42,677 bases of DNA from Candidatus Aminicenantes bacterium (GTDB lineage: Bacteria; Acidobacteriota; Aminicenantia; Aminicenantales; Aminicenantaceae): the NCBI GenBank assembly GCA_030671065.1, contig DAOVAM010000001.1, positions 1 through 42,677 on the forward strand, written 5' to 3'. Each line of letters begins with the position of its first letter. Positions within the stretch are counted from its first letter, which is position 1. Made by a program: the position numbers and the translations under genes. The notes under the pieces were generated by a model. It worked only from the letters and a program-made list of their open reading frames with translations, was not told where the DNA came from and searched no databases. Shown here in pieces: positions 21,144 through 30,019 of this stretch.

Positions 21144-22493
21144 CTATCCTATCATCACGCTTTCTTCAACATACTCGTATTTCCCGTAGGATTTCTGACG
21201 GCTGAACGCATACAACAGAGCTAAAGGCCCAATCCTTCCAATGTACATAATCAGAATAATCACAATTTTGCCCAGGGGAGAGAGTTTCGGAGTCAACCCC
21301 AGAGAAAGTCCGACTGTGCTGAATGCAGAAAAAACTTCAAAAAGCACATCTTTTATGCTTGCCCAGGGATGGGCGATGAGGAGGATGAAAGAGGCAAGAC
21401 AAATGATGCCCACAGCCAGAGTCACAACCGTAAAGGCCTTTGTGATTGACTGCATTGGCAGTGTTCTTCGATAAAGACTGACTGAATCTCTGGCCGCTAT
21501 TTTCGACTTCAAGAAAGCAAATATCACCCCAACAGTGCTGGTCTTCACACCGCCGCCTGTCGATCCCGGAGAGGCTCCGATAAACATCAGCATGATCAAT
21601 AGAAATACTGCGGCGAAGCTCAGAGAATTCAGATCCATGGTGTTAAAACCAGCAGTGCGGGGAGTTATGACCTGAAAAAGAGAAGAGAAAATCTTTTCCT
21701 TTATGGAAAACATCTTCAGTGAATGATTCCATTCTATAGCCAGAAAAAAAACAAAAGAGAAAAGGATGAGGACAGAAGTCAAAGTGAGGACCAGTTTTGT
21801 GTGGAGAGAGATCTGGGATTTTTTCTTGCGGAATAGGTCTGAGAAAATTGCTTTTCCCTCCTGGATGACGAGAAATCCCAAACCCCCCATAACAATCAGG
21901 ACGAAAAGAGTGACATTTATCCAGACATCTCCTCTGTAAGAGAGAAAACTATCGCTAAAAAGAGAGAAGCCTGCGTTACAAAAAGCCGAGATGGAATGGA
22001 AGACAGAATGAGAGAGGGCCTGAAGCCAGGGCAGATCTTTCTGCCAGTGGAGAAAAAGGAATAGAGTCCCCAAAGCTTCAAAGATTAAAGCATACAGGAA
22101 TATTCTTTTGATGAGCGACTTAACATTTTTTGGTGCACGATGGTGAAATCCTTCCTGAATGATAATCCTATCCTTGATGGAGATCCTTTTTCCCGCAACC
22201 AAAAGGATGAGGGTCGAGAAAGTCATGATTCCCAGCCCTCCCAATTGAAACAGGAAAAGAATTACGCCCTGTCCAAAAGGTGTGAAATAGGTGGCTGTGT
22301 CCTGGACGATAAGACCCGTCACACAGACTCCGGAAGTGGCGGTGAAGAGCGCATCGACAAAAGAAATATTCCCTGATTTTGTGCTAAAGGGAAGAAGGAG
22401 AAGAGATGTCCCGATTATGATAGCCACTATAAAGCTAATAGCCAGGACCTGTGCGGGTCGAAACCGTCTTTCTGCCCTTACATTTTGTTTCAT
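21144..22493 (-). CDS. trkH: TrkH/KtrB-family potassium transporter membrane subunit
   Basis: 449-aa polytopic protein with repeated selectivity-filter-like 'TGG/GLS' segments ('SPGSTGGGVKT', 'CNAGFSL', 'STVGLSLG'). It lies directly upstream of trkA. Confidence 0.85.
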   Translation of the reverse strand: MKQNVRAERRFRPAQVLAISFIVAIIIGTSLLLLPFSTKSGNISFVDALFTATSGVCVTGLIVQDTATYFTPFGQGVILFLFQLGGLGIMTFSTLILLVAGKRISIKDRIIIQEGFHHRAPKNVKSLIKRIFLYALIFEALGTLFLFLHWQKDLPWLQALSHSVFHSISAFCNAGFSLFSDSFLSYRGDVWINVTLFVLIVMGGLGFLVIQEGKAIFSDLFRKKKSQISLHTKLVLTLTSVLILFSFVFFLAIEWNHSLKMFSIKEKIFSSLFQVITPRTAGFNTMDLNSLSFAAVFLLIMLMFIGASPGSTGGGVKTSTVGVIFAFLKSKIAARDSVSLYRRTLPMQSITKAFTVVTLAVGIICLASFILLIAHPWASIKDVLFEVFSAFSTVGLSLGLTPKLSPLGKIVIILIMYIGRIGPLALLYAFSRQKSYGKYEYVEESVMIG

Positions 22494-22560
22494 GATTTAC
22501 TCAGACTCTACTTCCAAGATTAAAATCAAATCTAGTATTTAATCAGTTTTTTGTCAAATA

Positions 22561-22890
22561 AGGTAAGCATCCATATTTCCGTGATGAACAAAACTAGACT
22601 GGAGCCTGAGGAAAGATCAGGCTGGGTGCTGAGAAAACCGTATGCTCCGGCTTTTGGATTCAAAAACACGCATCTTTTGCCCCAGCGAGGCAAAAAATGC
22701 TCGGTTTCAGGCTTCGCTCTCCTCTCCTGCGGAGAGGAACCGTGCCCACTCCGCCTTCAAACGGTTTTTTCATCCAAACGCCTTCGCAGAGTATAGCTAA
22801 TGATTACGCTGGGGCAAAGCCTGCGTGTTTTCGTTGCACTCAGCCTGATCTTAAACACACTTGTTATCACGGTTTAGGGGATGCTTCCTC
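22561..22890 (+). ncRNA. Candidate large structured RNA, or alternatively a MITE-like nested inverted-repeat element
   Basis: Four long-range helices were verified by hand:
- 22565-22572 / 22879-22886 (8 bp)
- 22581-22591 / 22861-22870 (10 bp, one bulge)
- 22615-22629 / 22836-22850 (15 bp)
- 22663-22687 / 22807-22831 (22 Watson-Crick pairs, 1 G-U, 2 mismatches)
An apical hairpin forms at 22721-22737. The region is about 50% G+C by hand count in an otherwise AT-rich spacer, and it has no credible ORF. Strand and identity are tentative. Confidence 0.3.
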
Positions 22891-22954
22891 AAATGGAACC
22901 AGAGCCCTGGTTTGACTTTCAAAGTGGCATATGCTACTTTTTTTATTCAGGCAA

Positions 22955-23614
22955 ATGAACGTTTTGAACCTTATCGTTGAAGGCAGTCTTGTTGTTCAAC
23001 TGGTTCTTCTCATCCTCATTTTCTTCTCGGTCTTCTCATGGGCGGTCATCTTTTTTAAAAGAAAAACATTGAAATCTGCTGCCTTTCAATCTCAAAAATT
23101 CCTCAAAGTTTTCCGCAGGAGCAGTGATTTATCCGACGTGAACAAGGCGTCCAAAATTTACAAGACAAGCCCGATTGCAGCTCTCTTCCAGGCAGGGTAC
23201 AAAGAGCTTGCTCACACAACCAAATCCAACCAGGGAGTCCTGACTCCAGATGGTCTCGAAAGTATAAACCGAACTCTGGCAAGAGCATCAAACCAGGAAA
23301 TTTCCAAAATGGAAAGCATGATGAGCTTCCTTGCCACAGCAGGAAGCGTAACGCCTTTTATAGGCTTATTCGGAACTGTCTGGGGAATCATGGATGCCTT
23401 CTTGAATATTGAAGTAGAGAGATCGGCAAGCCTCGTGACAGTTGCCCCTGGAATTGCAGAGGCCCTGATCGCCACAGCATTAGGTCTTTTTGCCGCGATT
23501 CCCGCGGTTATCGCCTACAATTACTTCCTTCACCGAATAAAAGGAATGATCACTGAAATAGAGGATTTTTCCCTAGAATTCTTAAGCATTGCGGAAAGAC
23601 TCTATGGCTCTTAA
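22955..23614 (+). CDS. tolQ: Tol-Pal system protein TolQ (MotA/TolQ/ExbB proton channel family)
   Basis: Three TM segments with 'SFLATAGSVTPFIGLFGTVWGIM' and 'VAPGIAEALIATALGLFAAIPAVIAYNYF'. It heads a tolQRAB-pal-cpoB cluster. The start could be 22955 or 22931. Confidence 0.85.
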   Translation: MNVLNLIVEGSLVVQLVLLILIFFSVFSWAVIFFKRKTLKSAAFQSQKFLKVFRRSSDLSDVNKASKIYKTSPIAALFQAGYKELAHTTKSNQGVLTPDGLESINRTLARASNQEISKMESMMSFLATAGSVTPFIGLFGTVWGIMDAFLNIEVERSASLVTVAPGIAEALIATALGLFAAIPAVIAYNYFLHRIKGMITEIEDFSLEFLSIAERLYGS

Positions 23615-29669: not shown

Positions 29670-30019
29670 AGCCTATCCTCGATGAAAGTTCCTCCCTGAA
29701 TATCAACGGTTCATGACTATAATACCAATCCTTCTTCAGGGATGCAAAGAAAAGGGCTTTGTTCCCATTTCTTTACATCTGAGCACATCATTCTTCCCTA
29801 ATATATGCTTTCAGCGCCTCGAAATGTACCTTTCTGCACAGGGGGAAGAAAATCATTCAATTTTGTACTTTTGAAGTTGCTCAGAGCGATTTTCTTCTTT
29901 TTATCAAGTAGCTCTTCCTTCTATGAAAAAAATGTTTACAATTGCAAAAAATATTTACATAACATCCTTTGATATTAATCTTAAGCCTTATAGGGTAACT
30001 CGACTTTTCTTACTACTAT

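Follow-up and report, generated by a model that had tools for sequence, protein, structure and literature searches.

What kind of element occupies the spacer between the divergent trkH and tolQ genes of a Candidatus Aminicenantes bacterium (GenBank assembly GCA_030671065.1, contig DAOVAM010000001.1)? In the 42,677-nucleotide stretch of this contig that was analysed, hereafter called the window, the spacer (22494–22954) carries a G+C-rich block of nested inverted repeats (22554–22915). The original prediction, made from the letters alone, offered either a large structured RNA reading toward tolQ or a miniature inverted-repeat transposable element (MITE) with a 6-bp target duplication. We conclude with high confidence that the block is a MITE, a non-autonomous DNA transposon of 326 bp (22563–22888), that its relatives form a family scattered over Candidatus Aminicenantes genomes, and that it is inserted between the divergent trkH and tolQ promoters. 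As a class, a nested MITE lying between promoters is ordinary; the conserved inner core of this one is unusual.

In relatives with the same gene order, this site is either unoccupied or taken by other family members. Loci L110–L118 share the trkA-trkH<>tolQRAB synteny, with trkA and trkH on the - strand of the window and tolQ, tolR, a tolA-like gene and tolB on the + strand. The element is present, and the gene order identical, in loci L110–L113 (TolQ identity 98%) and L114–L116 (95%). In L117 and L118 (86%), the spacer is 120 nt long (L117:5881-6000) and reads TTTGTCAAT-CGGGATCAGGA-GTTTGAC, with a single copy of the target and no element. L119 and L120 (82%) carry a different element with the same type of ends (T2, described below) at the same position, with its own duplication matching at 7/9 bases (L119:5546-6069). 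The window's composite element is found in L008 in the opposite orientation and elsewhere in the spacer, 18 nt from the -35 box (L008:1-420), and yet another family member resides in the trkH<>tolQ spacer of L083 (L083:6307-7015). The L121 spacer is unrelated and holds no inverted repeats. The spacer has therefore been hit independently at least four times, by members that differ in position, orientation or cargo, and these hits reflect either an insertion hot spot or selective retention.

An alternative reading is that the insertion has been co-opted as regulatory DNA, serving as spacer or insulator, or taking up the negative supercoiling of divergent transcription by forming a cruciform. The independent insertions in different lineages fit such a role, as do the presence of 23 of the 66 classified family copies in divergent spacers and the persistence of the element in lineages whose flanking genes are 88–99% identical. 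However, the L117 lineage does without the element, the L121 spacer is unrelated, the inserted sequences and their orientations vary between lineages, and MITEs often land neutrally in A+T-rich spacers that hold promoters. Given these observations, we consider co-option improbable; the element is probably tolerated rather than used by its host.

The element is one of many. A search pattern of 18 specified bases, taken from the core (the two arms of helix 4, described below), gave at least 109 matches in species-representative genomes, almost exclusively in about 13 metagenome-assembled genomes (MAGs) that are of Aminicenantes type or mislabelled, with at least 5–17 loci per MAG among the matches listed. 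A second motif was found in at least 120 metagenome contigs and in no viral or phage contigs, and covariance model searches returned 119, 26 and 95 matches. The family comprises more than 200 copies across Aminicenantes genomes and metagenomes. By blast and alignment, just the inner ~140 nt (22644–22785) is common to all copies, at about 90% column identity, and the outer helices are present in few. Orientation relative to neighbouring genes is near random, the downstream gene being on the same strand in 47 of 80 copies. The block could be a chance or decaying palindrome without any family, as its single copy in the window might suggest, but this idea is refuted by the related copies elsewhere and by folding z-scores of -6.6 and -8.7 for its two strands.

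The ends of the element follow a geometry that recurs across the family. Terminus type T2, the window's own, reads 5'-G[T/G][A/T]AG[C/T]AT...ATGCTT[C/A]C-3' and is accompanied by 9-bp duplications, which match at 9/9 bases in four copies (two in L047, one each in L072 and L101), at 8/9 in four (L003, L018, L091 and L101) and at 7/9 in two. Across the loci, this terminus type marks 51 ends on the left and 56 on the right; the family terminus motifs are GTAAGCAT and GGTTCTCTTCC, and the 9-bp duplication lies immediately outside GTAAGCAT...ATGCTTCC. A second type, T1 (GGTTCTCTTCCATTTTGTGTGGG), has 8-bp duplications that match at 8/8 bases in three copies (one in L039, two in L067) and at 7/8 in four. 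Applying the T2 geometry to the window gives the span 22563–22888, with terminal inverted repeats of about 21 bp (GTAAGCATCC...GGATGCTTCC) that begin GTAAGCAT. The pair TCAAATAAG / TCAAATGGA sits exactly where this geometry predicts a duplication and matches at 6/9 bases. It is a decayed 9-bp target duplication, and the TCAAAT direct repeat (22554–22559 and 22889–22894), both copies of which are present as first placed, is its intact first six bases. Thus, the mobile-element half of the original prediction holds, with genuine terminal inverted repeats, a flanking repeat, multiple copies and an empty orthologous site, but the duplication is 9 bp family-wide rather than 6 bp. The size and coding content are also those of a MITE: 326 bp, with no Pfam match in the internal open reading frames (ORFs). 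The element and its immediate surroundings are laid out as follows.

22529..22557, - strand: trkH promoter, TTGACA-17 nt-TAGATT, with 10/12 matches in a promoter scan; conserved in orthologous spacers, outside the element and adjoining its left end.
22554..22562, no strand: left copy of the 9-bp target-site duplication, TCAAATAAG, overlapping the trkH -35 box and matching the right copy at 6/9; placed by family geometry.
22563..22888, + strand: whole MITE, 326 bp, with a type T2 shell, non-coding, 50% G+C; absent from L117/L118 and present in L110–L116.
22563..22585, + strand: left terminal inverted repeat, GTAAGCATCCATATTTCCGTGAT, the 5' arm of helices 1-2.
22866..22888, - strand: right terminal inverted repeat, ATCACGGTTTAGGGGATGCTTCC, placed by inverted-repeat pairing and family terminus type.
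22889..22897, no strand: right copy of the 9-bp target-site duplication, TCAAATGGA, placed by sequence and family geometry.
22912..22940, + strand: putative tolQ promoter, TTGACT-14 nt-TGC-TACTTT, located past the right end of the element and followed by the tolQ ATG at 22955.

The trkH -35 box TTGACA adjoins the left end of the element as originally described, although it lies at 22552–22557, one base from the 22553–22558 first given. On the other side, the block GTTTGACTTT...TGGCATATGCTACTTTTT upstream of tolQ is conserved whether or not the element is present (L110, L114, L117, L119, L121 and L083). Judging from this conservation, the block is likely to be the tolQ promoter, TTGACT-N14-TGC-TACTTT; the promoter scan did not list a promoter at 22912–22940. 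Because the element lies between two back-to-back -35 boxes, it would fall outside both the trkH and the tolQ transcripts, in agreement with the earlier view that it is not part of the trkH leader.

These positions bear on the proposal that the whole ~330-nt block forms a single structured RNA on the + strand or serves as a long 5' leader of tolQ. The fold is certainly strong. The 362-nt block folds far above chance on both strands, with -140.4 kcal/mol on the + strand (z = -6.6, equalled by 0 of 100 dinucleotide shuffles) and -154.7 kcal/mol on the - strand (z = -8.7 against such shuffles). All four long-range helices were found where they had been predicted: helices 1 and 2 at 22565–22585 with 22866–22886 (21 nt, 71% complementary, including the 8/8 match AAGCATCC/GGATGCTT), helix 3 at 22613–22638 with 22827–22852 (26 nt, 85%) and helix 4 at 22663–22687 with 22807–22831 (25 nt, 88%). 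The predicted apical hairpin pairs at 8/8 positions (22720–22727 with 22731–22738), the small hairpin announced directly ahead of tolQ is present as AACCAG/CTGGTT, and the claimed contrast in G+C content (about 50% against 28%) was measured as 0.50 for 22581–22870 against 0.275 for the spacer at 29881–30000, the window mean being 0.44. A further hairpin proposed for the left-arm insert (22633–22640 / 22648–22655) shows some pairing, but at only 6 of 8 positions.

Despite these genuine helices, a multi-branched + strand RNA directed toward tolQ does not survive comparison with relatives. A tolQ leader would lie between promoter and start codon in a fixed orientation, whereas the putative promoter block is downstream of the element, the element is missing in L117 and inverted in L008 beside the same flanking genes, and copies elsewhere sit beside unrelated genes in either orientation. 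Helices 1 and 2 are transposon termini with target duplications. When the helices were tested among related copies, helix 3 showed two-sided changes, but helix 4 did not stay paired at its variable positions. The wobble pairs said to favour the + strand do not do so at the level of the family, and the block folds better on the - strand. The Rfam search that had been suggested returned no described family: with Rfam 15, the window gave no match at the gathering threshold, 22400–23050 gave only noise at E up to 10, and seven loci with other family copies gave no match at E up to 0.05. A blastn search of a plasmid collection also gave no match. We regard the whole-block RNA as largely refuted and very improbable.

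The MITE interpretation accounts for the long-range helices through the nested structure of the element. A covariance model, R1, was built from 75 cores, and it matches the window block twice, once as an intact core on the + strand and once as a core on the - strand that has been split by the first.

22610..22642, - strand: 3' remnant of the split core, forming the left arm of helix 3; the model match runs from 22854 to 22610 (48.6 bits), and its central part gives way to an insert of 153 nt.
22640..22792, + strand: intact core (model R1, 156 bits, E = 2.8e-40).
22649-22659 with 22772-22782, + strand: P1 of the intact core.
22662-22667 with 22764-22769, + strand: P1a of the intact core.
22670-22679 with 22691-22700, + strand: P2 hairpin of the intact core.
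22709-22713 with 22752-22756, + strand: P4 of the intact core.
22720-22727 with 22731-22738, + strand: P3, the apical hairpin of the intact core.
22786..22806, no strand: A+T-rich linker from the intact core to the split core, a hypervariable junction that is 62% identical to L110, where the flanks are 98–100% identical.
22807..22854, - strand: 5' remnant of the split core (model positions 1–48), carrying the right arms of helices 3 and 4.

In the split core, 48 model positions at the 5' end and 30 at the 3' end flank the 153-nt insert. Helices 1 and 2 are the terminal inverted repeats. Helices 3 and 4 exist because the block holds two inverted copies of one conserved core sequence: helix 3 is P1 of the split core, and helix 4 arises where the P2 region of the intact core pairs with its counterpart in the inverted split core. 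The private insertions in the left arm, formerly read as RNA branches, are in fact the junctions of this nested second copy. At least 12 other copies share this composite layout and have homologous junctions (AACCGTTTGAA..GCTCAGGC); the composite thus arose once and then spread. Among 15 composites, helix 4 is unpaired in seven at each of its three variable pairs, and the local hairpin P2, which competes with it, reaches 97% pairing, with two-sided changes at five pairs. Helix 4 is a by-product of two inverted cores, and its pairing is not kept up at variable positions.

Within the family, the core can be separated from its shell and is mobile. Some shells have no core and carry 9 nt in its place (L067:7372-7639, L101:5519-5778), and one genome has the shell in both orientations relative to the core (9 versus 6 copies). 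Either the core was flipped by recombination between P1 arms, or two insertions occurred at the same position in the shell. The forms are represented by L003, L018, L107 and others on the one hand and by L062, L091, L085 and L025 on the other; in reverse complement, the left spacer of either form gives the right spacer of its counterpart. Core copies also lie, in either orientation, in the middle of other core copies, and this nesting yields "Russian-doll" palindromes. Cores bounded only by P1 show no consistent target duplication. A comparison of the window with L110 shows 98–100% identity in the flanks and outer layers, 92% in the intact core and 62% in the linker, which suggests that the core and linker were recently replaced, or gene-converted, from another copy. 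The changes are clustered (window 22643–22806 versus L110:5683-5850) and include compensated changes in P2.

The likely course of events is as follows. A DDE-type transposase acting in trans would recognise the terminal repeats, make a staggered cut of 9 bp and paste the element into the target. The block records a three-layer DNA history, with an outer shell that bears the terminal repeats, a - strand core, and the intact + strand core that replaced the middle of the first core. Having landed between the -35 boxes, the element sets the trkH and putative tolQ promoters about 335 bp apart and interrupts neither.

The transposase that would perform these steps was sought near the copies. Clustering of neighbouring ORFs, first for about 90 copies and later for about 220, gave no recurrent neighbour such as a transposase, TnpB/IscB or reverse transcriptase gene; the ORFs that do recur are host genes only (ABC transporter, ECF sigma factor, HflX and others, named by eye from their sequences without Pfam). 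Terminus pairs spaced 0.9–4 kb apart likewise enclose only host genes.

The intact core is more conserved than a passive repeat would lead one to expect. A model of five helices (P1, P1a, P2, P4 and P3) is 91.8% paired across 75 genome copies, with 26 of 40 pairs changed on both sides. None of 500 shuffles reached the observed values, and slid controls were 35–59% paired. An independent set of 95 metagenome copies reproduced this result, with 91.9% pairing and two-sided changes at 29 of 40 pairs. Across species, unpaired columns of the core are 93% identical and paired columns 83%.

Several observations weigh against a simple MITE. Neutral decay of such an element explains neither the greater identity of unpaired than of paired core positions nor stems that remain about 92% paired despite many two-sided changes. 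In addition, there is just one copy in the 42.7-kb window, its duplication matches at just 6/9 bases, and about 240 loci (about 1.7 Mb) yielded no autonomous element whose termini match. The four or more independent insertions in one spacer could also mean retention driven by selection instead of a hot spot.

Does the conservation of the core reveal a functional RNA? It could be that the intact 150-nt core (22640–22792) is a structured RNA carried by MITEs, in one form a - strand RNA that ends at the P2 hairpin and its T-run. Near-invariant unpaired segments between stems that vary and stay paired are what would be expected of such an RNA, as are the two-sided changes in two independent sets that no shuffle matched. 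However, upkeep of complementary inverted repeats at the DNA level would yield the same covariation. The - strand folds better in all 75 copies (consensus energy -51 versus -23 kcal/mol), and on that strand GTGTTTT comes directly after P2, which receives a terminator-like score. When all pairs are summed, A-C exceeds G-U on the + strand by about 2:1, which again would favour a - strand RNA, but among rare independent variants this asymmetry is gone (23:10 and 22:30 in the two sets). We consequently reject G-U versus A-C counts as evidence for either strand.

Other features of the core also fit poorly with an RNA gene. There is no Rfam family match, its orientation relative to neighbouring genes is near random, and in the window it lies between two promoters that are directed away from it. 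A common P3 variant has two internal mismatches (13–20 unpaired cells, at pairs 90/100 and 91/99). No conserved core promoter was seen by eye in the three layouts examined. Specifically, a candidate internal promoter for a - strand core RNA (TTGCCC-N16-TATACT, 22817–22790) occurs in some composites without a counterpart in other layouts and was not established. A host RNA gene is disfavoured because rare variants give no strand signal, orientation is nearly random, no promoter is conserved and no partner gene recurs. Overall, we think it unlikely that the core is a functional RNA.

Two other roles were considered and rejected. A terminator role is not supported, since neighbouring genes do not preferentially read into the side with the P2 hairpin and T-run. 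Nor is the core likely to encode a small conserved protein from GGAGAGGAACC, which resembles a ribosome-binding site, and the ATG, GTG or TTG that follows: the length of the T-run shifts the frame after about nine codons, and the variation in T-run and P3-loop length across copies would disrupt any reading frame. The sequence GGAGAGGAACC is at 22739–22747 in the window and at the same position in all cores; the next codon is ATG, GTG or TTG in almost every copy and CTG in two. This mimic of a ribosome-binding site plus start codon is probably coincidental.

The role of the core can be framed in other ways. It is possible, albeit doubtful, that the core is an undescribed structure-dependent element, either a hairpin-targeting mobile module or a noncoding RNA that hitch-hikes on MITEs. 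Its four covarying helices, its conservation across Aminicenantes species, its near-invariant unpaired segments and its repeated occurrence at the centre of other palindromes would be compatible with this. With low confidence, we propose that the core is a cis-acting structure for the propagation or maintenance of the repeat itself at the DNA level, and not a host RNA gene. To explain the conservation of the core, palindrome upkeep in DNA together with a role in the repeat's own propagation seems more likely than an RNA that acts in trans.

How does the element compare with known bacterial repeats? Bacterial MITEs such as Correia/NEMIS of Neisseria, RUP of Streptococcus and Nezha of cyanobacteria are small, non-coding, multi-copy and intergenic, and are polymorphic for presence or absence. 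They have terminal inverted repeats and a target duplication of fixed length, and they can form long hairpins if transcribed. The window element shares these traits; the likeness is one of organisation, and no relation in sequence is expected. It differs in that its family duplicates 9 bp, whereas Correia duplicates TA. Moreover, it is built of a shell, a split core and an intact core, its parent insertion sequence was not found, and one inner module is common to elements with at least two unrelated terminus types.

The ERIC/IRU repeats of enterobacteria are intergenic imperfect palindromes whose sequence is conserved across species while their locations differ, whose longer variants arise by internal insertion, and whose function is unresolved. 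The core resembles them as an imperfect palindrome of about 130–150 nt that is conserved across species, variable in location and represented by internal-insertion variants. However, it differs in phylum and sequence, is branched (P1–P4) instead of a simple hairpin, and usually lies inside a shell with terminal repeats and target duplications. REP/REPIN elements are paired units of about 25 nt that are mobilised by RAYT proteins and have neither a large conserved unpaired interior nor a target duplication. Like them, the core has arms kept complementary by compensating changes and many copies per genome, and cores bounded only by P1 have no evident target duplication. In contrast, the window element, with its long termini and its target duplication, does not fit this group. 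No RAYT gene turned up beside the copies, in neighbourhoods where no search aimed at RAYT was made.

The termini offer one lead to a parent. Ends of IS66-family elements begin with GTAA, and those of the window element begin with GTAAG. ISDge4, of the ISBst12 group of the IS66 family, has the termini 5'-GTAACTGCTCAGCA / GTGACTACTCAGCA, starting with GTAAC, and an 8-bp duplication (PMC12898284). The likeness of the window termini to ISDge4/IS66 amounts to five bases, the window duplication is 9 bp versus 8 bp, and the fetched loci contain no IS66-type transposase with termini of the window type. We therefore mention the IS66 family as a possible parent of this terminus type only as a lead.

These results affect the annotation of the locus: a false candidate RNA and a false 5' leader are removed, the start of tolQ is shifted to 22955, and spurious small ORFs are flagged. 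They also document a MITE family in Aminicenantes, a poorly known uncultivated lineage, with one divergent-promoter spacer hit at least four times; we found no description of this family in the literature on Aminicenantes repeats. If the conservation of the core reflects function, the core would be a new structured element. If it instead reflects gene conversion from arm to arm and from copy to copy, the family would be a clean case of DNA palindromes mimicking RNA covariation.

The tolQ start most likely is the ATG at 22955, giving 219 aa, and not that at 22931. The relatives of TolQ assign the window to Candidatus Aminicenantes. TolQ has 219 aa in all close relatives, and an exact look-up of the 227-aa form found none on record, because the true start would lie eight codons downstream. 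The ATG at 22931 is directly upstream of the putative -10 box and overlaps its TGC extension. With the -10 box at 22935–22940, the predicted tolQ mRNA leader is about 7–8 nt long and has no Shine-Dalgarno sequence. A palindrome, AAAGTGGCATAT/ATATGCTACTTT (22921–22940), overlaps this -10 box, is conserved in L117, L119, L121 and L083, and was also listed as terminator-like by a scan; it could be the operator for a regulator of the tol operon.

The two ORFs inside the block, originally judged to be non-coding, have no Pfam match, in agreement with that judgment. Small hypothetical ORFs have been called inside the element at 76 aa (L110:5624-5854), 81 aa (window 22551–22796) and 72 aa (window 22697–22915); these calls are likely artefacts that recur wherever the repeat occurs.

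Further layers are seen elsewhere in the family. Elements of both terminus types, whether or not they hold the core, can contain a conserved module, "B", which is about 330 nt long and has inverted ends of its own, GTATTTGGGGATGG / CCATTCCCAAATAC (L067:7372-7639, L101:5519-5778, L042:1581-1986, L083:6387-6780), and repeats in these genomes are nested up to four layers deep. Other small inverted-repeat elements lie inside cores at the P3 position (L077:1880-2050, L039:3860-3920, L027:6955-6990), one of them with TGAGGGATCTGACTTT...AAAGTCAGATCCCTCA termini, and the core apex seems to be a preferred landing site for small elements.

Finally, many repeat copies are carried by MAGs labelled "Actinomycetota bacterium FK_Sedi_B_Bin.138" (L003, L005, L012, L018 and others; JAMDDL01) and "uncultured Eubacteriales" (L004–L109; CAZ... 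MAGs). L008:351-7081 is syntenic with the window and 80–83% identical to it across the uvrA-like, helicase, trkA and trkH genes. The Actinomycetota and Eubacteriales labels of these repeat-bearing MAGs look wrong.

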